From Candidatus Aenigmatarchaeota archaeon (GTDB lineage: Archaea > Aenigmatarchaeota > Aenigmatarchaeia > Aenigmatarchaeales > JACQIB01): DNA of 21,039 nt. Where the stretch lies: contig JBHIDR010000012.1 in assembly GCA_046760225.1 (NCBI GenBank), positions 1 to 21,039 on the forward strand, written 5' to 3'. This document shows positions 3,526 to 21,039 of this stretch, piece after piece. Made by a program: the position numbers and the translations under genes. A model generated the notes under the pieces. It was not told the DNA's origin. It saw nothing but the letters and a program-made list of their open reading frames with translations, and did not search any database. The stretch's first letter is position 1. Each line of letters begins with the position of its first letter.

Positions 3526-3897
3526 TTATTCCTTCCATGGCCTGCAGATGATAATGGCATAGAGCAGGTCAGATATCACATGGAAAAGTGCTCCCAGGAA
3601 TATGGGGAAGTAGAGGATATAGAACACAGCGAGTGCCAATATGTTATGAAAGGGCAAAAGGAACCAGAGCTTGAGGCTCTTAATCTTGCTCTTCTTTGAA
3701 AGTTCCCTGCAATGGTTCCATATTCTCTTTAGGCTCAGTGTCCGCAGCTTTATGCTGAAGAATAGGACATGGTCTGCATCCACTAGGATAGAAGCTGCGA
3801 TGGCAATAAGTAATTCAAGCGGCGTGAGGAAGCCAAAGAACAGATGCAATGGTATGAAGAAGAGCAGTGCGAACAGCAGGTGCCAGTGCGGTAGCAT
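3526..3897 (-). CDS. Small integral membrane protein, YdjM-like putative metal-dependent hydrolase
   Basis: Hydrophobic segments carrying H (PHWH), DADH, PFHN and FHVISD motifs in the spacing typical of this family. ATG at 3897; an in-frame GTG at 3906 is an alternative start. Confidence 0.65.
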   Translation of the reverse strand: MLPHWHLLFALLFFIPLHLFFGFLTPLELLIAIAASILVDADHVLFFSIKLRTLSLKRIWNHCRELSKKSKIKSLKLWFLLPFHNILALAVFYILYFPIFLGALFHVISDLLYAIIICRPWKE

Positions 3898-3907
3898 GTA
3901 AATCACA

Positions 3908-4008
3908 TGGTGGGCGGGGAGAGATTTGAACTCTCGACCACTCGATTATCAGTCGAGCATTCTAACCTGGCTAAACTTTGCGGGTCCGTTCGCACGAACT
4001 ACCCGCCC
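3908..4008 (-). tRNA. tRNA-Ile(GAT) with a 23-nt intron at position 8/9; CCA encoded
   Basis: Minus strand: GGGCGGG-T[intron]A-GTTT-AGCCAGGTTA-GAAT-G-CTCGA-CT GAT AA-TCGAG-TGGTC-GAGAG-TTCAAAT-CTCTC-CCCGCCC-A-CCA. Removing 23 nt gives a canonical 78-nt cloverleaf. Confidence 0.95.
3978..4000 (-). other. tRNA-Ile intron (8/9), 23 nt
   Basis: AGTTCGTGCGAACGGACCCGCAA. Central helix GCGG(3-6)/CCGC, bulges GT|A and AA|A, intron hairpin GTTCGT-GCGA-ACGGAC closed by a GNRA tetraloop. Confidence 0.8.
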
Positions 4009-4045
4009 TTATCCTCGCCCATTAAATCAGTATATCAGCATTACT

Positions 4046-4053
4046 TATATAAA
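4046..4053 (-). promoter_or_regulatory. TATA box for tRNA-Ile
   Basis: TTTATATA on the minus strand, 37 nt upstream of G1. Implies a start site near 4020-4022 and a leader of about 12-14 nt. Confidence 0.6.
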
Positions 4054-4071
4054 TTGGTGGACCGGGCGCGA

Positions 4072-4100
4072 GTTTCACTTCCACCCCTTTGGGTGAGTGC
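4072..4100 (-). other. tRNA-Ala intron (59/60), 29 nt
   Basis: GCACTCACCCAAAGGGGTGGAAGTGAAAC. BHB with outer helix = T stem, central helix TTCA/TGAA, bulges AA|G and AC|T. Confidence 0.85.
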
Positions 4101-4138
4101 TTTGAACGCGCGATATCTGCCTTGCGAAGGCAGCGTCA

Positions 4139-4152
4139 CTCCGGGCAGGTCA
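4139..4152 (-). other. tRNA-Ala intron (21/22), 14 nt
   Basis: TGACCTGCCCGGAG. Central helix CCGG/CCGG (self-complementary), bulges AA|T and AG|T, single C-G and G-C flanking pairs. Confidence 0.75.
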
Positions 4153-4199
4153 TTCCGGGCTAGACCACCGGCCCATAGAATTAGTTGCAGCCAGAAGAT

Positions 4200-4207
4200 T
4201 TAATAAA
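4200..4207 (-). promoter_or_regulatory. TATA box for tRNA-Ala
   Basis: TTTATTAA on the minus strand, 25 nt upstream of G1 (very short leader expected). Confidence 0.5.
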
Positions 4208-4433: not shown

Positions 4434-4480
4434 GGCATGTTATTTAATATTAAAAAATATAAAGTTTAACAAGTGGTAGT

Positions 4481-5173
4481 ATGAAGATTGCAGCTGTGTC
4501 TGATATTGATTTTCCAGGCTCAATGGAGATGTTCTGGTCAGCACTCCAGAAGACAAAGCAGCCAGATCTGCTTCTTTTTGCGGGCGATATGTGCGATTTC
4601 GGCCACTACAGCCAGTACAAGGTGGTGCTGGACAAGATAAAGAAGAAAGGATGGAAGTGCCCGATATATGCTTGTTTTGGCAACAAGGAGTTTGAGCAGG
4701 ACTATGCAAAGATAAAGGAAATAGCAAGGGGTGTCACCTTTATTGAAGATGAGAAAGTAGAGTTTGAGATAAAAGGTAAAAGCATAGGAATAGTTGGAAG
4801 CAAGGGCGTGCTTGACATGCCAACATGGTGGCAGGCGCAGAATGTCATGGGAATAAAGGACACCTACAAGATGAGAAGGGCATTGATGGTAAAGCTCATG
4901 AATGAGCTCAAGTCAGACATAAAGATACTGCTGACGCACTATGCGCCCACTTACAGGACACTGAAGGGCGAGGACGCGAGCATATGGAAGGTGCTGGGCA
5001 CGAACAAGCTGGAAAAATACATGGTAAAAGCTGGGATTAGCTTTGCAATCCACGGGCATGCGCATTTTGGCACGCACCTTGCTTTTGTTGGCAAGATACC
5101 TGTTTTCAATGTTGCCTTGCCAATAAGCAAGCAGATAACAATGATAGATACTGAAAAGCTGCCAAAAGCTTAA
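4481..5173 (+). CDS. Calcineurin-like metallophosphoesterase family protein
   Basis: MKIAAVSDID, AGDMCD, FGNKE, LLTHYAP and HGHAH motifs in metallophosphoesterase order; two motifs deviate (see findings). Confidence 0.85.
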   Translation: MKIAAVSDIDFPGSMEMFWSALQKTKQPDLLLFAGDMCDFGHYSQYKVVLDKIKKKGWKCPIYACFGNKEFEQDYAKIKEIARGVTFIEDEKVEFEIKGKSIGIVGSKGVLDMPTWWQAQNVMGIKDTYKMRRALMVKLMNELKSDIKILLTHYAPTYRTLKGEDASIWKVLGTNKLEKYMVKAGISFAIHGHAHFGTHLAFVGKIPVFNVALPISKQITMIDTEKLPKA

Positions 5174-7620: not shown

Positions 7621-7917
7621 ATGGGAAATATAATAAAAAAGCTAAAGAAAGAGGGCAAGCTAGGAGGGAAAAGAAGGACTTCTACTTCGCCAATGGGCGG
7701 GTTTAGTGCTGTTGATGCTTTTGGAAGGTACAAGGTAGAGGAAGTAGATATTAATGGCATGAAAATACGGGTTGTTGTTGAAAGGAGCATGACAACGGGT
7801 GAGAAAGAGGTTCTGGGTGTCTATGAAGGCACAAATGAGGACCGCAGCAAGAGCTACTGGACAATAGAGGACAAGGACTTCTATGATAAGCTAACCACCA
7901 AGCTGAAGGAGAGATAG
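7621..7917 (+). CDS. Hypothetical protein (98 aa), probably co-transcribed with valS
   Basis: Starts 3 nt after the valS stop, preceded by GGAGG; codon style resembles neighbours. No recognised family. Confidence 0.7.
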   Translation: MGNIIKKLKKEGKLGGKRRTSTSPMGGFSAVDAFGRYKVEEVDINGMKIRVVVERSMTTGEKEVLGVYEGTNEDRSKSYWTIEDKDFYDKLTTKLKER

Positions 7918-7961
7918 TTAACTTTATATACTAGTTAGTAGTAAATATATTAGTGGTTTTC

Positions 7962-8171
7962 ATGTCAAAAAAGAAGAAAAGCAAGAAAAAGAAGGAGACA
8001 TCTTATCTTACGGGCATGAATCTTGCAGACACTACGATACTTGGTAAGGAACTGCCCCATGGCACCTATGATCCCAGGTCAGCTGACAAGGTGGTACTGA
8101 GAAGCCTTGGGATAATTGGAGAGGAGCCAAGGAGAAAGAAAGACAAGCATGAACTGAGCATGTACCAGTGA
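7962..8171 (+). CDS. Small basic hypothetical protein (about 69 aa)
   Basis: Own TATA box TTTATATA (7923-7930); start ATG 7962 or GTG 7953; Lys-rich N-terminus MSKKKKSKKKK. Confidence 0.6.
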   Translation: MSKKKKSKKKKETSYLTGMNLADTTILGKELPHGTYDPRSADKVVLRSLGIIGEEPRRKKDKHELSMYQ

Positions 8172-11107: not shown

Positions 11108-11467
11108 ATGCGCATAGTCCTGGACACCAATTTTCTGGTGCTTGCTGTCAAGGAGAAAATCGGGATATTCCTGCAGCTAAGGGGCAAGAGAATATACGTG
11201 ATAGGACCTGTGATGAAGGAGCTGGATAAAATAGCAAAGGGAAGGAGCAAGGACGCTGTTGCAGCCAGGGTGGCGCTCATGATAGTAAAGACCAAGAACA
11301 TGAGAAAGCTGAGAACAGGGTTCCGGAGCGCAGACAGGGCATTGCTGGAAAAAGCAAGGAAAGGTTATGTTATAGCAACGCAGGACAGTGTATTGAGAAG
11401 GAGGATAAAGAAGGCAGGGGGAAAAGTTTTATATATAAGGCAGAAAAAGTATGTGGTATTTGAATAA
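11108..11467 (+). CDS. PIN-domain protein, archaeal Fcf1/Utp24-like
   Basis: IVLDTNFL, V..EL, ADRALL, IATQD..LRRRI, V.YIRQKK; sits in its usual position upstream of rpo7. Confidence 0.88.
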   Translation: MRIVLDTNFLVLAVKEKIGIFLQLRGKRIYVIGPVMKELDKIAKGRSKDAVAARVALMIVKTKNMRKLRTGFRSADRALLEKARKGYVIATQDSVLRRRIKKAGGKVLYIRQKKYVVFE

Positions 11468-11539
11468 GGGCATTTTAACTGAAATCAATCCACTTATAAA
11501 GGTACTGAGCATAATATCTATAAATTTGAGGTGAAAAAA

Positions 11540-12148
11540 TTGTACCAGGTATGCACAATAGAAGATGTGATAGCAGTTTCTCCAGTAAAATTTGCACTTG
11601 ACCTGGATGCTGCAATAAAGGAGAGCATACAGGAGAAGTATGAAGGAAAAATAGACATGGACATTGGAGTGATATTGGCTGTTGTTGAGGTAAATGACGT
11701 CCAGGAAGGAAAAGTGCTTCCAGGCGACCCCTCTGTGCATTATCCGGTAAAATTCGTGATTCTTACCTGGATGCCAAGGGACCATGAGATTGTTGAAGGC
11801 GAGGTGGTTGATGTCACAGAATGGGGGGCTTTCATAAGGGTAGGGCCACTGGACGGTCTTGTCCATATATCACAGGTAATGGATGACTATGTGAGTTATG
11901 ATGAGAAGAATTCCCAGCTTGCTGGAAAAACAAGCAGAAGGATACTCAAGATGGGCGACAAGGTAAGGGCAAGAGTGATATCAATAAGCCTTAAGGAACA
12001 ATCAAAAGTAGGGCTTACAATGAGGCAGCCGTTTCTTGGCAACCTGAAATGGCTTGAGGAGAAAGCAAAGGAAAAAGCCAAGGAAAAGAAGGAAGAGAAA
12101 AAGAAAGAAGCACCCAAGAAGAAAGCAAAGAAGACAAAGAAGAAATAA
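11540..12148 (+). CDS. rpo7: DNA-directed RNA polymerase subunit Rpo7 (E')
   Basis: EG.V.PGD, EIVEGEVVDVTEWGAFIRVGPLDGLVHISQVMDD (S1 domain), KVGLTMRQPFLG; Lys-rich tail. TTG at 11540 (giving MYQV...) preferred because the GTG at 11531 is part of a GAGGTGA Shine-Dalgarno. Confidence 0.96.
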   Translation: MYQVCTIEDVIAVSPVKFALDLDAAIKESIQEKYEGKIDMDIGVILAVVEVNDVQEGKVLPGDPSVHYPVKFVILTWMPRDHEIVEGEVVDVTEWGAFIRVGPLDGLVHISQVMDDYVSYDEKNSQLAGKTSRRILKMGDKVRARVISISLKEQSKVGLTMRQPFLGNLKWLEEKAKEKAKEKKEEKKKEAPKKKAKKTKKK

Positions 12149-12367: not shown

Positions 12368-12473
12368 TTCATAAATGATGTACTATTCGGCTTTTTTCTA
12401 AAGAAAACACTACACTAGACATGCCTATTTATATTGTTTCGCTATGTAATTAATGTTAAGCAAGGTATTTTTT

Positions 12474-15400
12474 ATGGCAACAGGGAAGAAGGGACATAGC
12501 TTTGAGAATCTGCCGGAGTTTGAAAAAGAGATAGTAAGGATAATACAAAAAAAGGGCCAGACTGCTTCTATTGACATTGCAAGAATAATGTATCCTGACT
12601 TGCTTAACATCAGACCAAAGGTGTCACAGGTCAGTGTAAGCCTTAAAAGACTGGAGAAAAAGGGTGTTCTGAAGCGAACTAAGAAGGAAGGCAGGAAGGC
12701 CTATTATAATTTGAGGGTGCCGATAAAGCAAAGGAGAATACAGAGAAAAATAAGAACCAGGAAGCCTGTGAGGCCAAAAATACCCATGGAAGAGAAGCCG
12801 AAACAACCTATGCAGCCTGCTGCAAAGCCGAGGATAAGCACATTCTCGAAATACCATACAAAAAGAATAGGCATTGTGTTTGCTGCACTAGTGATTTTGG
12901 GGCTTATAATCAGTTTTGGTGGAATAACAGGACTTTTTCTGCAGGAGAACATACAGCTCAGCATTGTCAGCAACCAGCTAGAAGGTGGGCAGGAGCTGGC
13001 CTATAGCATACGTAATATACAGCCCCAAAAGATGACAGATATTACAGCGCAGATAATACTGCCTGCTGAGAGCAGTATAATGGATTCTGGGGGTGCGGTT
13101 GTCCAAGAAGAGGCTGACAGGACAATATTGACATGGTCTATTGATTCTATGGAGTCAGATGAAACAAAATCCTTTGTTTTTACAGGAGTTGTTGACGGAA
13201 GAGTTGAGATGGCTGCAAGCGGTACAATAAAAGGGACTGAAGTAGCAGCTGCAGACCCTTACCAGGCAAGTGTGGGAGCTGACAGCTATTATTATCATTC
13301 ATTGGATGCAGGAGAAGGCTATGTTGAGGACATCACTATCTTTGCTACTGCAAGTATGATCGGAGTGGAACTGCCTGAAGAAAATATTACAGAGGAAATT
13401 CCGCAAGCTGGGGAGAACATAACAGAAGAGGAAATAATAGAGAACATAACAGAAAACATCACTGAGCAAGAGCTGAACATAACTGAGAACATTACAGAGA
13501 ACATCACTGAAAATGTGACTCAGAACATAACAGAAAATATTACGCAGCCAGAACAAAACATCACAGAAAACATAACGCAGAACGAGACAATTGGGGAGCC
13601 AGAAGCAAATGAGACACAAGAACCAGAACAAAATGAAACAATTGGAACAGAAGAGACTTCACAGGAACCAGAGCAGAATGAGACAGAGGAACCAGAAACA
13701 AATGAAACACCTGAAGAGCAATCAGAAGTCTCGAACATAACAGGAGCGTTCCTTGGCGGCGATAGCTATGTAACATTGAATGTATATATTGACAGTGATA
13801 ATGAGGTGAATGGCAATGAAGGCTTCATAGGAGAAATTATTTTTAGTGGAATCTGGAGCGGAGATGTTAGTGCGTCCTTCCCACCAGAGACATATCCTGC
13901 TTCATCAAATATTGTAACATATTCAACAGATGATGTCAATATCGAGTTCAGTGAAATCATAATCACGAAGAGATTCGAGAAAGAGATAAGCAGCAGCAAG
14001 CTGGTGGATGTTTATGGTGTAAATGTCACAGAAGTTCCTTATACAAAACTTGAGGAAGATGTTACTTATGATGCAATAATAGATTCTGCAGAACTTGATG
14101 AAAGCGGAACACTGACAGTGGTGTTCCATCATGACTCACCTGTTCCACAGCCGATTTACATTGAAGCTGATTTTGATTATACTTTAAGCAAAGACCAGTC
14201 AAGTTCAGGTGAGAGCGTCATTCTTACTGTCCTGAACTGGACAGAAGATGATTACTTTGAGGTATACATAGGTGGTGCAACAGAAGTTGTTGCATTCGGT
14301 GCACCAGAATACTATGACTTTGATGCAAGTGTGCTGGGTGCTGAAGGGGAAAAGCAGAACGTGACAGTCGAGTTCAAGAACGCAAGGACAAAGAAGCTCA
14401 GGAAGAAGACCAAAGGACTAGACAATGTAGTGAAGGTCAAAGAAGGTAAGTATGATATTGAGATGAATCCTGTAGAGGGTCCTGTTAAGAAAATAGTTTT
14501 TGAAAACATAAAGCTTAAAGAAAACATCTCCGAGTTCGTGAAACTTGATACAAATGTTTCTGTTGAGGGTTATGACAAAACATATGCAATTGATCCAACT
14601 GCATTTAATTTCACAAATGCAACTGTCACAGTGACAGCAACAGGAACAACACTGTACAAGTGTAAGGATTGGAACCTTGAAACACAATCATGTTATGGAA
14701 GTTGGGTACTTTTCAAATCTGACCTGGTTCCAGGAGAGAACTATACATTCACATTGACTCCAGAAGATCCCGCGTTTTCAGAAACATTACAGCCAAACGC
14801 GACAATAGGAATTGATACATTTGTCAATCAAAAAGCCCCAACCACAAATTATGGTAGCCAGACAATGCTGGTTGCTGGCGAATCTGGCGGCAAATACGCA
14901 GGCATACTTATAAAATTCACGGGTAACATCCCTGCAAATGCAAACATAACATCAGCTGCATTGAAGCTTTACTTCTATGATTCTCCGACAAACCCAACTA
15001 ATCAAATAAACCTGTCAACAAGACTAATCACTTCAAACTGGAATGAGTCTGATGTAACTTGGAACACAAGGCCTACTTACTCTAGTCAGTATTCCGACAA
15101 AATCACTTTAACAAACAGCTATGGCTGGGTTGAATGGGATGTGACTGAAATGGTTCAGGGATGGGTCAATGGCAGTTATACAAACCATGGTATCGCTGTT
15201 ATTCCAGATACAGGAACAGCCAGCACTGACAAGAGGTTCTACAGCAGTGATTATTCAAATGCATCGCTGCATCCCCTTTTAGAGACCAATTACACAACAG
15301 GACAGATTAACATAAGCATAGCATGGCCCATAAACAATACCCAGCACGGCAATGGCATTGTAATGAGCGAGTTCAATGTTTCAAGCGAGTACAATATAAC

Positions 15401-18400
15401 GGCGTGCTCCCTTGTTGTAAATGGCGTTGTGCTGGATACAGACACGAACATAACGCAGAACACAGTAAAGTATTTTGAGCGGAGCGCAACAGTAGAAGGC
15501 ACATTCAACTGGTACATAAACTGTACAGACAGCATGGGGTATATGGCTTCAAGCAGCCTGATGACGAACACAGTCAATGCGTCCAAAGCAGATGTGCACG
15601 GGAAAGTGGTTGATAGCAGCAACAATCCGGTAAACGTTACCATCAGGTTCAAGCAAAACGGAATTACGAAATATATTAGCCAGGGTCTGATTCACAGGCT
15701 TGTGGTCGATGATGGTGTATATGATATTGAAGTGACGCCGGTCGGTCATATCATTAGCGGGGTGACATTCAAAAATGTCAATATTACAACAGGATTCAAA
15801 AAGGTTGTTGATATAGATACAGTGCAAGATGCGAACAAGACTGCCGGTTACGCAAGAGTGTATGCAGTAGACCCGACAGCACTGAATTTCAATAATGCCA
15901 CAATCACAGTAACAGCATCCCAGAATGCTACTGTGCTCTTCAAATGTTCAAGCTGGAACTTCACCACAGAGGAGTGTCCGGTTATTTCGGAGAACTGCAC
16001 TTCTGATCCGAATGAGAACAGTTCACAGATATGCAATTATACCGGCGGTTGGGAATATTTCATGGATGTGCTGCCCGGACAGGAGTACAATATTACACTA
16101 ACGCCAAATGACCCGGGATTTGCAGAGGGCAGCCCGAGCAACGGGACAGCAGACAATGGCGGGTATACCTTCATAACATCCCAGAACTCATACCAAACAT
16201 CAAGCGGAAGCTACCTCAATACATGGTCTGATGACAGTTCGTATTATTGTACGGGATATCATGATTCCGCGAGCAGCGGAACTAACAGATGGTACACTTA
16301 TTTTGATTTCAACCTTACCAACCTGAGTCTGACTTCCCTGGACAACCTTACATTCGAGTGGAGGGGATATGCAACAGGAAGGGACGGTTTATGCGCACCG
16401 ATTAATGATCCTGCAGAATGTTCTGATGGGCACGGGACATGCCAGCCGTCCTACATAAGGGTCTATGACTGGTCAACAGGACAGTGGGACATACTCAATT
16501 CAACTTCGTACACAGTTACAAGCGCATGGGACACCACGCAGCAGACCATCATAAGGTCCAATAACACACCAAAACAAAGCTGGTACAACAGTACCACAGG
16601 TACGGTAAGGGTGGCATTTGAACAACATGAAACAGGCATGTACTATCGCTATGAGACATACCTGATACATGACTATATACAGTTGAGTGTCGGTTATTCT
16701 TCAGGAGGGGGTTATGTTGTAGTCAACCTGCCTCCGGGCAAAAGGGCTGTCCTCGCTGAAAACACGTCAGTAGATGTGACAGCAGTGCCGCAAACAGGCA
16801 TCAAGGATATTTACCTTGCCCATGGAGCCTTTGGAAGCAACGGCAATATAATAGCAAGATTGACAATAGATTTCTCTTCAGATGTTGACTTGAGCGATAT
16901 TACAGTGGAAACCGACAGGAATAACAAGAAGGCAGTGATACACAAGCCCAGCTACCCGTCTGACGTGGTCCAGAAGAACCTGCTCATACCAAGCACAGGT
17001 GCAGGAGAGGCCTACATATGCCCGGGTGTAACGTCATTAAATGCAGTAAACACGCTCTGCTCGAACAGAGTAACAATTGGAGCAGGCCAAACAAAGAACG
17101 GCATGACGGTTTCCATGACAACACTTGATAACGAGGATTATTATCTCGTTTCCAATATCACGGGAACAGGTGGAGGGGAAGGCAGTGCACCAGTGGCCTC
17201 CAATGTAATTCTGAATTCGACCTCAGGCAGTAACCTCACAACTGATAACTTAACAGTAACTTATGATGTTTCTGATGCAGACAATGATACAGTAAAGAAC
17301 ATAACAAACTGGTACAAGGACGGTTCTTCAATAGCAGTCCTGAACATGCCGTTTGAAGGGGGAAGTAATTCAACCTACATAAAGGATTATTCTGGATACA
17401 GCAACAATGCAGCCTATGTAAATGCAACATGGAACTCATCTACTGGCTTTGATGGGAAGGGAGCATACAACTTTTCATCAACGTACATAGAAGTTTCAGA
17501 TGACAGTTCACTGGACCTCCCGGATGAGATGACGATTCTTGCGTGGATAAAGCCGGATACAGTAAGCAGTATTCATTTCATTGCAGAGAAAGGATACAAT
17601 GACAATGATAATTTCGGTTTCCTGACATACGGCGATGAGCTGTATTTCGAATACAACAGCACTTCAGGTTACCAGTACAAACAAACTTCAAATGTAAATC
17701 TCACAGCAGGCGAGTGGTACCACGTGGGTATTGTTGCAAATTCAACCTTCCTCAAATTCTTTGTGAACGGGCAGAATGTTGAAAATTTTAACCTGACTGC
17801 AGGATTTGTTACGAACGACCACCCCCTCCTTATAGGGCTGCAGAACTACACGGGAGCGCCCTATTACTTTGATGGCATTATTGACGAGGTTATGATATTC
17901 AACATGACGCTGTCGGATGAGCAAGTGGAAACAATCTACAGGAATGAAACAGACCTTATTGTTTCGCAAGAAACATCAGATGGCGATGTCTGGAAGGCGT
18001 GCGTAACGCCAAATGACGGGGCGCTTGATGGTACAGAAGTATGCAGCAATAACCTTAGTGTTGCTTATGATGCCACGCCACCAGCCATAAACATAATATC
18101 GCCAGCCAACAACTCCGAGGACATAGATGGGACAGTGCTTTTCGAATACAATGTCACGGACAGCGAGACATCTGTAAGCTCGTGCGGACTGATAATAAAT
18201 GATGTCACAGACCAGACAGACAACAATGTTACAGAAGGCGTGACGCTGAACTTCAGCAAAACAGGAATGATAGGCGGGAACTATTCCTGGAAGATTAACT
18301 GTACAAGCGAAGGTGGTGAAAGCCATTCGGATTTGAGAACAATCACAATCAAGCAGGCAATATTTGAAGACAATTTCACTCTGGCAGGAGGCTTCCAGAA

Positions 18401-21039
18401 TGATTCGGACAACAAGGCACCATGGGAATGGGGAAATGCCACTCAAATGAACGGCTGTCACAGCCCACCAAGCTGCTGGGGGACCAACCTGACTGGAAAT
18501 TATTATTCAAAGACATCTTCACCTCCGGATCCCTATGATGATTTCCTGACGCAGGTAAATTCAATGGACCTTTCCGATTATACCAACATTACACTGACAT
18601 TTTACCACTACAGGTATTTTGAAGATGCATCAACACTCTGGGATGCCGGAGTGGTTGATATAAATTACAACGGCTCATGGACTAGGCTGACGCCCGAAGA
18701 AGGGTACAGCGGCACAGTAGCCGGCAATGCTGATAGTTCGCTGGCGAACCAGTCAGCCTATGGTTACCATGGCAGCGGCTGGGAACTGGCAACCTTTAAC
18801 CTAACACCTTATGCTGGAAATTCAAATGTCACAATAAGGTTTTACTTTGCAGCTGACATGTATGCGCATGACAGGGGATGGTTCATAGACGATATAAGAG
18901 TCACTGGCGACGCTTCAATTGATACAGCAGCGCCATCATACTCCCAGCTTAAGGAATCACCAGCAGATTCAGCAGTATACAGTTCAGGAGCAAGCTACCA
19001 GTTCAACGCGACATGGACCGATGATACGGCTGTGGACACTGTAATCCTGGAGTTTGACGGTGTTAATTATACAGATGTCTCGAGCAGCGGAAACGAATAT
19101 TACAGGACGTTCACTGACCTGTCGGCTGGCGATTACAATTACCAGTGGTATGCAAAGGACACTTCCAATAACTGGAACAAAACAAGTACGATGATTTATA
19201 CAGTTGAGCAGGCAAATTCATCACTTTCAGTTGCGCTGGACCCGTCCTCGAGCGAAGCATTCGGAACAGAAACAACAGCCAACTGCAGCATCACTAGCGG
19301 GGATGCGGGTGCGACAATAACATTTTACAGGAATGGAACATCTGTAAATAATCCGGATGTTCAAACACTTGGGGCAGGTGTCTATAATTATACATGTATT
19401 TACACCCAATCGCAAAACTATACTGCAAACTCCAGTATTGACAATTATCTGACAATTAACAAGGCATCAACAACAACTAACTTGTATATAGACGGCTCTG
19501 AAGCAAACAAGAGCGTCACTTACGGTGCGCAAACAAATGTCACTGCAACAACATCTGCAGGCTCGGTGACGCTGTACAGGAACGGGCAAGCAGTAAATAA
19601 TCCGGACATAACAGCACTTGCAGCAGGAACTTACAATTACACGGCATACAACGCTGGCAATGATAACTATACAGGCAGTTCAGAAACATGGTGGGTGACT
19701 GTGGTGAAGGCAAACACAACATTAACACTGGTTGCTTCACCGAGCTGGACAGAAACATACGGAACAGAAACAAATATAAGCTGTAATGCCGACAATCCTG
19801 AAGTTTCACCAACATTATACAGAAATGGGGAAGCAGTGAGCAACCAGGATATTCTCATACTGGGTGCAGGGACGTATAACTATACCTGCAACAACACTGC
19901 AACGCAGAATTATACAGCAGATTCGGAGAGCAACACACTGACAGTAAACAAACAAACAACTTCCACCAGCCTATTCATCAACGGTTTTATGTCAAACGAT
20001 ACAATAACATACGGAGCACAGTCGAATGTTACTGCCACAACCTCAAACCTTTCAGTAACACTTTACAGGAACGGAACAGCTGTGAACAACCCGGATATGC
20101 TTGTGCTTGGGGCCGGTATCTATAATTACACTGCTGTAAACGAGGGCAATAATAATTATACTGGAAGCTCGTCTACATGGTGGGTGACTGTAAACAAGGC
20201 AGACAACCCTGTAAATCTATATATTAATGATAAATTAAACCAGAATGATACAATAATATACGGTACACAAAACAATGCTACTGGAACAACCCTGATTGGA
20301 ACAGCATACCTCTACAGGGACAGTGCTCCAGTAACAAACCCGGAAATAACAACACTGGCTGCGGGAACATACGCCTACAAGGTAAACAGTACAGGCAATG
20401 CCAATTATTCTGACAATTCAACTGGGCTGACCTACTATTTGACAACCAATAAGGCCATGTCAGCAATTGAGGTTTCCCTGAGCCCTTCGGACAATGAAAC
20501 CTATGGGACATCGTCCACAGCAAGCTGTGGAATAGTGACAGGTGAATCCAATGCAACACTAACGCTCTATAGGAACAATAATACAGTAGCTAGTGGGTCT
20601 GGCAACCAGTCTGAAACAACAATACTGGCAGCTGGTACATACAATTATACATGTTTGTATACAGAATCTGAGAACTTTTCAGCCAGCAGCAATACAGACA
20701 ACTATCTTACCATCAACAGGGCAACATCAACTGCTTCACTGGTCCTGTCCCCACCATCACCAGTAACATACGGAACTTCCACAACAGCAACATGCACTGA
20801 CACCAATCCGGAAACATCAGCAGGCCTTTACAGGAACAGCACAGATGTGACAGCAGAGAACAACACAGGTGTTGTTCTGGGAGCTGGTGGATACAGCTAT
20901 GTGTGCAATGTCACAGAAACAGAGAACTATACATCAGCAAGCAATAGTTCAGCCTATAATGTTGAGCAGGCATCCAACCCGGTGAACCTCTACCTGAACG
21001 GAACGCTTAATGCAAACAAAACAATAACATATCCTGCTG
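12474..21039 (+). CDS. Giant membrane-anchored surface glycoprotein/adhesin with an N-terminal winged helix-turn-helix (partial, at least 2855 aa, 3' end outside window)
   Basis: One frame from ATG 12474 (MATGKKGH...) to the window end (...NKTITYPA); no stop seen in manual translation and no + strand ORF in the track, as expected for a frame running off the end. Approximate domains by motif recognition: wHTH 12510-12713; K/R/P linker; TM 12867-12941; DUF11-like ~12990-13190; ENIT stalk 13380-13742; unnamed Cys domain x2 (14319-14783, 15594-16127); DNRLRE/CBM96-like 14784-15293; LamG ~17331-17940; InhA/MAM-like sandwich ~18360-18908; tandem Ig-like repeats from 19209. Confidence 0.92.
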   Translation, partial: MATGKKGHSFENLPEFEKEIVRIIQKKGQTASIDIARIMYPDLLNIRPKVSQVSVSLKRLEKKGVLKRTKKEGRKAYYNLRVPIKQRRIQRKIRTRKPVRPKIPMEEKPKQPMQPAAKPRISTFSKYHTKRIGIVFAALVILGLIISFGGITGLFLQENIQLSIVSNQLEGGQELAYSIRNIQPQKMTDITAQIILPAESSIMDSGGAVVQEEADRTILTWSIDSMESDETKSFVFTGVVDGRVEMAASGTIKGTEVAAADPYQASVGADSYYYHSLDAGEGYVEDITIFATASMIGVELPEENITEEIPQAGENITEEEIIENITENITEQELNITENITENITENVTQNITENITQPEQNITENITQNETIGEPEANETQEPEQNETIGTEETSQEPEQNETEEPETNETPEEQSEVSNITGAFLGGDSYVTLNVYIDSDNEVNGNEGFIGEIIFSGIWSGDVSASFPPETYPASSNIVTYSTDDVNIEFSEIIITKRFEKEISSSKLVDVYGVNVTEVPYTKLEEDVTYDAIIDSAELDESGTLTVVFHHDSPVPQPIYIEADFDYTLSKDQSSSGESVILTVLNWTEDDYFEVYIGGATEVVAFGAPEYYDFDASVLGAEGEKQNVTVEFKNARTKKLRKKTKGLDNVVKVKEGKYDIEMNPVEGPVKKIVFENIKLKENISEFVKLDTNVSVEGYDKTYAIDPTAFNFTNATVTVTATGTTLYKCKDWNLETQSCYGSWVLFKSDLVPGENYTFTLTPEDPAFSETLQPNATIGIDTFVNQKAPTTNYGSQTMLVAGESGGKYAGILIKFTGNIPANANITSAALKLYFYDSPTNPTNQINLSTRLITSNWNESDVTWNTRPTYSSQYSDKITLTNSYGWVEWDVTEMVQGWVNGSYTNHGIAVIPDTGTASTDKRFYSSDYSNASLHPLLETNYTTGQINISIAWPINNTQHGNGIVMSEFNVSSEYNITACSLVVNGVVLDTDTNITQNTVKYFERSATVEGTFNWYINCTDSMGYMASSSLMTNTVNASKADVHGKVVDSSNNPVNVTIRFKQNGITKYISQGLIHRLVVDDGVYDIEVTPVGHIISGVTFKNVNITTGFKKVVDIDTVQDANKTAGYARVYAVDPTALNFNNATITVTASQNATVLFKCSSWNFTTEECPVISENCTSDPNENSSQICNYTGGWEYFMDVLPGQEYNITLTPNDPGFAEGSPSNGTADNGGYTFITSQNSYQTSSGSYLNTWSDDSSYYCTGYHDSASSGTNRWYTYFDFNLTNLSLTSLDNLTFEWRGYATGRDGLCAPINDPAECSDGHGTCQPSYIRVYDWSTGQWDILNSTSYTVTSAWDTTQQTIIRSNNTPKQSWYNSTTGTVRVAFEQHETGMYYRYETYLIHDYIQLSVGYSSGGGYVVVNLPPGKRAVLAENTSVDVTAVPQTGIKDIYLAHGAFGSNGNIIARLTIDFSSDVDLSDITVETDRNNKKAVIHKPSYPSDVVQKNLLIPSTGAGEAYICPGVTSLNAVNTLCSNRVTIGAGQTKNGMTVSMTTLDNEDYYLVSNITGTGGGEGSAPVASNVILNSTSGSNLTTDNLTVTYDVSDADNDTVKNITNWYKDGSSIAVLNMPFEGGSNSTYIKDYSGYSNNAAYVNATWNSSTGFDGKGAYNFSSTYIEVSDDSSLDLPDEMTILAWIKPDTVSSIHFIAEKGYNDNDNFGFLTYGDELYFEYNSTSGYQYKQTSNVNLTAGEWYHVGIVANSTFLKFFVNGQNVENFNLTAGFVTNDHPLLIGLQNYTGAPYYFDGIIDEVMIFNMTLSDEQVETIYRNETDLIVSQETSDGDVWKACVTPNDGALDGTEVCSNNLSVAYDATPPAINIISPANNSEDIDGTVLFEYNVTDSETSVSSCGLIINDVTDQTDNNVTEGVTLNFSKTGMIGGNYSWKINCTSEGGESHSDLRTITIKQAIFEDNFTLAGGFQNDSDNKAPWEWGNATQMNGCHSPPSCWGTNLTGNYYSKTSSPPDPYDDFLTQVNSMDLSDYTNITLTFYHYRYFEDASTLWDAGVVDINYNGSWTRLTPEEGYSGTVAGNADSSLANQSAYGYHGSGWELATFNLTPYAGNSNVTIRFYFAADMYAHDRGWFIDDIRVTGDASIDTAAPSYSQLKESPADSAVYSSGASYQFNATWTDDTAVDTVILEFDGVNYTDVSSSGNEYYRTFTDLSAGDYNYQWYAKDTSNNWNKTSTMIYTVEQANSSLSVALDPSSSEAFGTETTANCSITSGDAGATITFYRNGTSVNNPDVQTLGAGVYNYTCIYTQSQNYTANSSIDNYLTINKASTTTNLYIDGSEANKSVTYGAQTNVTATTSAGSVTLYRNGQAVNNPDITALAAGTYNYTAYNAGNDNYTGSSETWWVTVVKANTTLTLVASPSWTETYGTETNISCNADNPEVSPTLYRNGEAVSNQDILILGAGTYNYTCNNTATQNYTADSESNTLTVNKQTTSTSLFINGFMSNDTITYGAQSNVTATTSNLSVTLYRNGTAVNNPDMLVLGAGIYNYTAVNEGNNNYTGSSSTWWVTVNKADNPVNLYINDKLNQNDTIIYGTQNNATGTTLIGTAYLYRDSAPVTNPEITTLAAGTYAYKVNSTGNANYSDNSTGLTYYLTTNKAMSAIEVSLSPSDNETYGTSSTASCGIVTGESNATLTLYRNNNTVASGSGNQSETTILAAGTYNYTCLYTESENFSASSNTDNYLTINRATSTASLVLSPPSPVTYGTSTTATCTDTNPETSAGLYRNSTDVTAENNTGVVLGAGGYSYVCNVTETENYTSASNSSAYNVEQASNPVNLYLNGTLNANKTITYPA
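13380..13742 (+). repeat. Coding low-complexity repeat (ENIT/QNET)n, acidic N-glycosylation stalk
   Basis: Degenerate 12-nt units such as GAGAACATAACA and GAAAACATCACT; 18 N-x-T sequons in about 121 codons. Confidence 0.9.
19209..21039 (+). repeat. Tandem Ig-like repeats of 81-89 aa (7 complete + 1 partial)
   Basis: Consensus KA...L.......TYG....T......LYRNG..V.NP....L(G/A)AG.YNYT......NY..S......TVN. Unit starts at about 19209, 19461, 19707, 19950, 20196, 20451, 20718 and 20967. Confidence 0.9.

Follow-up and report, generated by a model that had tools for sequence, protein, structure and literature searches.

Why would a giant protein of the archaeal cell surface carry, at its N-terminus, a domain of the type that binds DNA? 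The question is raised by a 21,039-nucleotide stretch of DNA from a Candidatus Aenigmatarchaeota archaeon (contig JBHIDR010000012.1, positions 1 to 21,039; hereafter, the window). A single long open reading frame (ORF) of the + strand, which begins at ATG 12453 or 12474 and runs stop-free through the window end, encodes a protein of at least 2,855 amino acids (12474..21038, open at the window end, the 3' end lying beyond). It joins a domain of the winged helix-turn-helix type (wHTH), a basic linker rich in Pro, one hydrophobic segment and a giant ectodomain of lectin/Ig-like character, an anatomy that a preliminary description of the window had drawn correctly. The fusion is very unlikely to be an artefact, judging from homologous sequences: it defines a conserved, unnamed family, whose wHTH may regulate transcription from the membrane.

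The wHTH domain occupies aa 11-80 (12504..12713, + strand; residues are counted from ATG 12474), with a recognition helix at aa 47-62 and a wing at aa 66-80, and was analysed with Pfam, NCBIfam, AlphaFold2 and Foldseek. The Pfam family Penicillinase_R (PF03965) matches aa 15-80 with 25.3 bits when aa 1-159 are scanned alone and 20.1 bits in the whole protein (the gathering cut-off is 22.6), and the match covers only profile positions 3-64 of 115. The same family scores 26.8-63.8 bits in 12 of the 13 relatives scanned. The NCBIfam model of CopY/TcrY (TIGR02698) gives a partial match of 25.9 bits for a cut-off of 121.95, and PDB sequence searches with the N-terminus return weak matches only (MarR, PadR, MecI, ArsR, histone H1).

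The AlphaFold2 model, built on a 14-row alignment, has a per-residue confidence (pLDDT) of 95-98 for aa 11-80 and shows the canonical order of helix, strand, two helices and a beta-hairpin wing (helix 15-27, strand 29-31, helices 32-39 and 47-62, strands 66-72 and 75-80). Foldseek against the PDB finds mainly wHTH DNA binders (ScoC, H1.0, MecI, PerR, RosR, BlaI and proteins of the ArsR/SmtB and MarR types) with a probability of 1.0 and E values of 2e-3 to 1e-2; a few other proteins of the winged-helix type, such as ribosomal proteins and a cohesin module, are among the listed matches. The globular domain of histone H1.0 is second in this ranking, with 29% identity and a TM score of 0.69 on the target, and its E value in the sequence search is 0.21, which is not significant. 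As a lead only, an ESM Atlas look-up of the wHTH alone gives 0.90-0.92 to clusters of wHTH regulators, including that of BlaI/MecI/CopY, and aa 1-170 score 0.79 or less. The Pfam match, the model and its structural neighbours confirm the wHTH that the preliminary description had placed at aa 13-80, and we infer from them that this tail binds DNA.

The wHTH is followed by a basic, Pro-rich linker (aa 81-131, 12714..12866, + strand) which contains 18 K/R, 2 D/E and 8 P, and which is predicted to be disordered (pLDDT about 60). A Kyte-Doolittle scan of all 2,855 residues finds one hydrophobic segment (aa 132-156, 12867..12941, + strand), which could serve either as a signal-anchor or, within a signal peptide, as the h-region. 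Its outer end reads GGITG (aa 149-153, 12918..12932, + strand), putatively a signal-peptidase -3/-1 site or a GxxxG packing motif. The segment is flanked by KYHTKR on the inner side and by QENIQ on the outer side. The part that precedes it (aa 1-131) has an isoelectric point of 11.1, no cysteine and no sequon; the C-terminal part has an isoelectric point of 4.1, 28 cysteines and 133 N-x-S/T sequons, compared to 55 ± 6 (maximum 75) in 1,000 shuffles. Because the hydrophobic segment is single, its N-terminal flank is basic, and sequons and charges are distributed asymmetrically, an N-in/C-out orientation is predicted. This supports the topology proposed earlier, with no sequon inside and 133 outside.

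Do homologous proteins bear out the fusion? When aa 1-164 were searched exhaustively with HMMER against 1.84 billion representatives, 27 proteins were retrieved at E <= 1e-3 (relatives and ectodomain homologues are designated by P numbers). Nine of them are 1,459-3,167 aa long and have their wHTH match at residues about 5-100. A hydrophobic segment follows the wHTH units in 18 of the 27; the remaining nine are 64-225 aa long, and several of these resemble fragments of longer members. With a profile made from the relatives, 55 wHTH units are detected in a total of 28 proteins; each protein has between one and three of them, N-terminal in all cases. Two more giants, P0039 (1,617 aa) and P0080 (3,438 aa), came from an ectodomain search, among 66 homologues. 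The homologue search that the preliminary description had called for thus yields 11 giants with one to three N-terminal wHTH units, one hydrophobic segment and variable ectodomains. In word-indexed searches, none of 103 candidates was a giant relative of aa 1-175, and a profile search among longer proteins gave only P0015; since the exhaustive search of representatives found the family, these outcomes reflect a limit of the index. In a collection of 185,579 species genomes, a pattern scan produced 12 matches, none of which was confirmed, so that the family was not found there at that pattern.

The alternative is that separate wHTH and adhesin genes were joined by misassembly or a sequencing error, or that translation starts at Met105 or Met113. 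Both methionines exist in the linker and might, as far as the sequence goes, allow internal initiation. But the 11 divergent giants keep wHTH, hydrophobic segment and adhesin in one frame, through linkers of about 26-57 aa, and no stop or frameshift of the kind the preliminary description had considered separates them. Across the junction, P0039 and the window protein are colinear, from wHTH, linker, hydrophobic segment and beta-sandwich through the stalk into some 800 aa of ectodomain, with 37% identity over 817 aa. For P0004, P0006 and P0027, two or three separate source entries contribute proteins of equal or almost equal length to the same 90%-identity cluster. The GC content is even across the junction between wHTH and adhesin, and the wHTH is conserved and confidently folded. 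As for the late start that had also been envisaged, the Shine-Dalgarno-like AAGGT before ATG 12474 is conserved in L001, a contig of an Aenigmatarchaeota metagenome-assembled genome (MAG), which argues for the early start. The fused relatives, the colinearity of P0039 and the separate source entries make a misassembly or a lost stop very unlikely, and we regard an artefact of any of these kinds as close to negligible.

The members of the family share a module. It begins with one to three wHTH units and a linker (about 26-57 residues, often with a Pro-rich end), and continues with a hydrophobic segment that has a Gly-rich end, a beta-sandwich and a sequon stalk. The beta-sandwich is found at the same position in six relatives, with 25-32% identity. 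Beyond this module the ectodomains vary, and include CBM96/disaggregatase repeats, beta-helix/NosD, PQQ propeller, subtilase, FG-GAP, LamG and Big_13 domains. The window protein and P0015 are 72% identical over 338 ectodomain residues and 39% identical in the cytoplasmic part, which indicates that cassettes are exchanged. Alignments of four related pairs show that the cytoplasmic module is under constraint and at least as well conserved as the ectodomain (63 vs 50, 75 vs 51, 59 vs 56 and 60 vs 52% identity).

In the recognition helix and the wing, the polar residues R47, S51, R59, K63 and K71 are kept in 39-49 of the 55 units, across unrelated ectodomains, and this sequence conservation points to a shared ligand. 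The units cluster mostly by position, first units with first units and so on, and the unit classes differ in a position-specific manner at helix positions 52-54. Most units are basic (+3 to +11), that of the window protein being the most basic of the 55 (+11); one subgroup has degenerate first units that are acidic, with a net charge of -2 to -8. Relatives often have acidic or mixed linkers. In four members of about 285 aa (P0013, P0020, P0025, P0028), two units are followed by a transmembrane (TM) segment, a short loop and a second TM segment, without any ectodomain.

The C-termini of some members have features of their own. In P0013, P0020 and P0028, the motif PG-x(4-6)-PL is followed by a hydrophobic helix and, at the very end, by RR(K/R), endings reminiscent of archaeosortase-type C-terminal sorting signals. 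The full-length P0004, P0005, P0009 and P0027 share a C-terminal domain (the last ~160 residues, 49-63% identical, no C-terminal TM segment) which ends with ...CFLDW.D..D.AE......VP......GAK.ST..FI.TQA. That of P0024 is different, with a TM segment and a basic tail.

What, then, does the tail do? The reading we favour, with a probability of roughly 40%, is that it acts as a transmembrane transcription regulator on a target common to the family, a proposal based on the modelled fold and on sequence conservation. In a single polypeptide of this Aenigmatarchaeota (DPANN) organism, the first 80 residues would form a basic MarR/BlaI-like wHTH in the cytoplasm, connected by a basic Pro-rich tether of about 50 residues to a single membrane span and, outside, to more than 2,700 N-glycosylated residues of beta-sandwich, lectin and Ig-like domains; the family joins its conserved module to interchangeable adhesive or enzymatic ectodomains. 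The wHTH would remain tethered and bind DNA from the membrane. Since the recognition helix is nearly constant and the outside variable, a target shared by the whole family is favoured, the most plausible one being the surface-protein genes' own promoters; by the same observation, a ligand-specific sensor with a regulon of its own is disfavoured. Domains of the BlaI/MarR type usually function as dimers, and because the window protein, with its one wHTH, lacks a dimerisation domain, lateral clustering of the ectodomains, for example at a contact site, would be needed for avid DNA binding. Such clustering would couple surface engagement to DNA occupancy and gene expression.

Several points weigh against this proposal. 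Winged helices can bind protein or RNA too. No target motif was found, the lone candidate being a 12-nt inverted repeat around the start codon, in an RNA whose fold is ordinary (z = 0.58). No sensor-like or autoproteolytic fold is among the Foldseek matches of the juxtamembrane domain. The near-constant helix, the ectodomain-less members and the multi-copy tails also suit a constitutive tether. Lastly, cleavage may take place at the motif that follows the hydrophobic segment, and a signal-peptidase cut at ITG would undo the physical fusion of tail and adhesin in the mature protein; this possibility (GGITG|LFL) had no place in the reasoning of the preliminary description.

Cleavage is the core of the alternative that we take most seriously, although we still consider it unlikely: the hydrophobic segment would be an internal signal peptide cut by signal peptidase I after ITG (aa 153), as in a polyprotein. 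The glycoprotein would be released or otherwise held, and a wHTH-TM stub of about 150 aa would stay in the membrane or be freed by an intramembrane protease, so that each export event would produce one DNA-binding stub that reports secretion, not contact. The nearest analogy is a viral polyprotein, in which a nucleic-acid-binding N-terminal protein is parted from a glycoprotein by an internal signal. Indeed, the hydrophobic cores are only 15-18 residues long in most members (KR, a 17-residue core and GGITG|L in the window protein), and they are followed by a Gly/Asn/Ser-rich stretch of 5-7 residues with small residues at -1/-3 (GGITG|LF, GGGMG|FF, GAGLG|FF, SSGITG|FF), which fits the signal peptidase I rule. 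The scan found an N-terminal hydrophobic segment in 51 other giants (within P0036-P0101), and in 16 of these a similar motif, [ILVF][TS]G[FYLSA], occurs a few residues past that segment (e.g., SITGFA, SITGYA, GITGFQ, VITGFS); others of the 51 have Ala-rich endings at the same place instead (e.g., SASASA, FSMA, PALA). The [ILVF][TS]G[FYLSA] motif may be a processing site typical of the lineage or a packing motif. The members made of wHTH units and TM segments are, in addition, natural stub-like proteins. But the uncharged stretch totals 25 residues, which suffices for a stable anchor, GxxxG is equally a helix-packing motif, and the first beta-strand of the ectodomain begins 6-7 residues past GGITG. 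A folded N-region of about 130 residues ahead of a cleaved signal would also be very unusual.

A tether between nucleoid and envelope, in which the basic wHTH would bind DNA without sequence preference, as a linker histone does, and pin the chromosome at the sites of the giant protein with no regulation, is an unlikely reading too; it fits the facts, particularly the members with several units or without ectodomain, about half as well as regulation does. The charge of the window tail, to which the linker adds its 18 K/R, the rank of histone H1.0 among the best matches by sequence and by fold, the same recognition helix beside different ectodomains and the tandem units all agree with it. Against it, the H1 sequence match is not significant, the acidic or mixed linkers of relatives lack this basic character, the nearest profile families are sequence-specific regulators, and the differences between unit classes at positions 52-54 suggest that distinct sub-sites are recognised. 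In a Notch-like juxtacrine device, which we find distinctly improbable, binding to or pulling on a host surface would cluster or cleave the adhesin, and the wHTH, tethered or released by intramembrane proteolysis, would act on shared promoters. The contact sensor and the chromosome tether envisaged in the preliminary description are candidate functions, as is a secretion-coupled regulator. The proposal that wHTH and Pro-rich stretch dock onto a cytoplasmic protein of the cytoskeletal, secretion or division machinery, and not onto nucleic acid, is more doubtful still. In bacteria, the HTH of RodZ binds MreB, and protein-binding winged helices are known; in many members a conserved Pro-rich motif lies directly N-terminal of the hydrophobic segment (MPSMPHIPP, LPKLPHVPP, IPRPRVPR), and the acidic degenerate first units of one subgroup cannot bind DNA. 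Most units are strongly basic, though, the sequence, profile, language-model and fold matches are all to DNA-binding regulators or H1, and no partner candidate was identified.

If the wHTH is a regulator held at the membrane, how does it compare with known systems? Demey et al. (2023, PMC10269533) define transmembrane transcription regulators (TTRs) as proteins with a predicted DNA-binding domain and at least one predicted TM region. According to this work, 367 of the 404 archaeal species surveyed carry TTRs, which amount to 1,384 archaeal proteins, and 56% of all TTRs are single-pass. With its predicted wHTH and membrane segment, the window protein is a TTR in this purely architectural sense. 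The preliminary description knew of no described system with this architecture: the class that combines a DNA-binding domain with a TM region is in fact already catalogued in archaea, and it is the sub-architecture that is undescribed in the literature searched. Indeed, no protein with wHTH, TM segment and giant ectodomain was found in that literature, the scope of which leaves out subscription journals and bioRxiv supplements, nor by term search in the accessible text of PMC4158269, PMC8407114, PMC10556640 and the preprint 10.64898/2026.05.12.724683. The supplementary tables of PMC10269533, in the part consulted, hold no entry 'Penicillinase', 'CBM96', 'Big_3', 'Beta_helix' or 'FG-GAP', and the Laminin_G_3 rows among those listed there are proteins of 370-383 aa with Trans_reg_C.

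The bitopic TTRs ToxR, CadC and TcpP resemble the window protein in having an N-terminal cytoplasmic wHTH, one TM segment and an extracytoplasmic C-terminus, and their N-in/C-out topology is also predicted here; the window ectodomain exceeds 2,700 aa and varies between members. The likeness to ToxR and CadC proposed earlier holds for this topology and not for kinship, as these proteins use the OmpR/PhoB-type Trans_reg_C, which is not among the seven Pfam families found at E <= 1 for aa 1-159. Penicillinase_R, the family of the BlaI/MecI/CopY repressors, is the best-scoring sequence family for the wHTH of the window protein, and MecI and BlaI are among its top structural matches. These regulators are soluble, and the sensor, BlaR1 or MecR1, is a separate protein. 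The C-terminal dimerisation domain of BlaI/MecI, with its cleavage site for the sensor-protease, is absent from the window protein, whose match stops at profile position 64 of 115 and is followed by the 51-residue linker. Similarly, the Cys-rich C-terminal metal site of CopY/TcrY is missing, aa 1-131 contain no cysteine, and the equivalog score is not reached.

An archaeal precedent for a transcription factor working from the membrane is provided by ArnR/ArnR1, compared here by description and not by sequence. The TM helices of ArnR are C-terminal, and it is not known to have a large ectodomain. In Sulfolobus acidocaldarius, ArnR and ArnR1 are membrane-bound transcription factors which control surface structures (PMC6396743, as far as accessible). 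Also bitopic are the RsgI factors, anti-sigma-I proteins from Clostridium thermocellum and Bacillus (PMC10328401, PMC10556640, both in the parts accessible), with an N-terminal cytoplasmic output and extracellular C-terminal carbohydrate-binding modules that sense insoluble ligands, but their output is the sequestration of a sigma factor and not a DNA-binding domain. Their signalling relies on an autoproteolytic SEA-like juxtamembrane domain, whereas the window protein has a generic beta-sandwich and no match to the RsgI N-terminal Pfam family. In the accessible text of PMC10556640, the terms 'DNA-binding', 'helix-turn-helix' and 'archaea' do not occur.

The giant LamG/DNRLRE/Ig-like surface proteins of DPANN archaea have a homologous mosaic ectodomain, but the wHTH module is missing in 64 of the 66 that were newly found. 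The globular domain of linker histone H1/H5 is, like the tail, a winged helix followed by a basic region, and the stretch from helix 3 to the wing is visibly similar, which is a lead only; H1 is eukaryotic, soluble and bound to nucleosomes. The window protein is thus a new sub-architecture within the catalogued TTR class, and is not a ToxR/CadC, BlaI/MecI, CopY or RsgI protein.

The ectodomain (all coordinates on the + strand) starts with the family-conserved juxtamembrane beta-sandwich (aa 157-266, 12942..13271), an all-beta domain of ~100 residues modelled with pLDDT above 90. Its Foldseek matches are generic beta-sandwiches of the CBM2, Ig and macroglobulin types only, and the idea of a SEA/GAIN-like autoproteolytic domain was therefore rejected. 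It is followed by an acidic, sequon-dense stalk of NITE(N) repeats (13380..13808), a type of stalk that follows the beta-sandwich in most family members. Tandem DNA repeats of 12, 24 and 69 nt at 13413-13710 encode its ENITENIT / EPEQNET sequons. Further on, a duplicated module (aa 615-740, 14316..14693, and aa 1040-1168, 15591..15977; the second copy is 38% identical to the first) surrounds a CBM96 / DNRLRE / disaggregatase-repeat domain (14811..15284; CBM96 6.2e-24, DNRLRE 9.1e-35). A Laminin_G_3 domain of the concanavalin A-like lectin type lies at 17478..17927 (1.6e-25), and eight tandem Ig-like repeats of about 70-90 aa each (aa 2247-2830, 19212..20963) run on towards the window end.

The ectodomain homologues of the window protein are 67 giants of 1,574-5,009 aa, with E values down to 3e-282. 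Where the N-termini of those without the wHTH module are complete, they are mostly a short signal or anchor. The source names Woesearchaeota, Nanoarchaeota, Aenigmatarchaeota and Micrarchaeota belong to the ectodomain homologues and not to the wHTH-bearing relatives. Residues 1-45 of P0045 and P0068 form another small basic cytoplasmic domain before the TM segment (MVYKKY..GK.YGPY.Y.S.R..GKV..YLG), which scores 13.5 and 16 bits with DUF6788 for a cut-off of 27.2, and the cytoplasmic N-termini of P0054 and P0071, of 132 and 65 residues, match nothing in Pfam. Cytoplasmic heads may be a more general feature of giant adhesins.

Upstream of the giant gene, a run of T (12393-12398) that follows the stop codon of spt4 suggests that the gene is transcribed separately from spt4. 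A sequence read as TATA-box-like, TTTATATT (12428..12435, + strand), a label based on the archaeal promoter consensus, precedes the gene, and a scan for bacterial-type promoters and terminators gave nothing useful. The Shine-Dalgarno-like AAGGT (12463..12467, + strand) stands 6 nt before ATG 12474 and corresponds to AAGGTGG in L001. The block GTTAAGCAA..AGGT is kept upstream of the L001 ortholog, and the in-frame ATG that lies further upstream in the window has no counterpart there; for this reason, ATG 12474 is taken as the start.

A perfect 12-nt inverted repeat encloses the Shine-Dalgarno-like site together with the start codon and codons 1-45. Its 5' arm, ATGTTAAGCAAG (12453..12464, + strand), overlaps the conserved block GTTAAGCAA, the sole block conserved with the upstream region of L001, and its 3' arm, CTTGCTTAACAT (12599..12610, + strand), lies within codons 42-46; L001 ends before the 3' arm. 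The arms pair as a 12-bp stem in the minimum free energy fold, and the pair may be an operator or a translational control element. The motif TGTTAAGCAA was rejected as a candidate, with 3 matches (at most one mismatch) vs 2.4 expected; only the exact 12-nt inverted pair stays odd.

The giant ORF is preceded by housekeeping genes of the archaeal type (FttA/aCPSF1, GMP synthase, metallophosphoesterase, ValRS, aRF1, NYN, TatD, PIN, Rpo7 and Spt4). The aRF1 of the window is 72% identical to that of the Aenigmatarchaeota contig L001, and the order aRF1-NYN-TatD-PIN-Rpo7-Spt4 is common to both; the second-tier aRF1 loci, with 46-52% identity, are from Aenigmatarchaeota or DPANN too. The guess of the preliminary description, that this is a DPANN-type archaeon, was therefore right. 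Directly after the syntenic block, L001 ends 31 codons into the start of an orthologous gene, LPDFEKNIVKII (L001 13617-13709); the end of the contig reads ...LPDFEKNIVKIISRRGKS, homologous to the start of the giant gene. It follows that a syntenic ortholog exists, broken off by the contig end. Six-frame ORFs of at least 50 aa at 11 further aRF1 loci (L002-L012) include no family member. Giant repeat-rich genes probably fragment such assemblies and hide the family from genome collections. Elsewhere in the window, ORFs of 72-145 aa with no Pfam match at E <= 0.01 lie on the + strand (3907-4203, 7621-7917, 7953-8171) and on the - strand (3526-3906, 4440-4727, 11429-11866); the latter, which overlap genes or ORFs of the plus strand, are unlikely to be genes.

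DPANN archaea have few regulators and no obvious signalling pathway for sensing contact with a host and responding to it. A family which joins giant adhesive or enzymatic ectodomains to a domain of the DNA-binding type is a concrete candidate that can be cloned, and the recurrence of this odd combination in a small family hints at a direct link between cell-surface contact and DNA. If the tail regulates genes, membrane-bound transcription control would extend to ectodomains ten times larger than the known ones, and the tail would be a prokaryotic counterpart of the contact-dependent signalling of animals. If the tail works in a Notch-like manner, one protein would provide the route from host contact to gene expression in a genome-reduced symbiont. 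A tail that is cut off with the signal peptide would be an unusual regulator coupled to secretion, and a plain tether would bear on how the chromosome is organised at attachment sites in very small cells.

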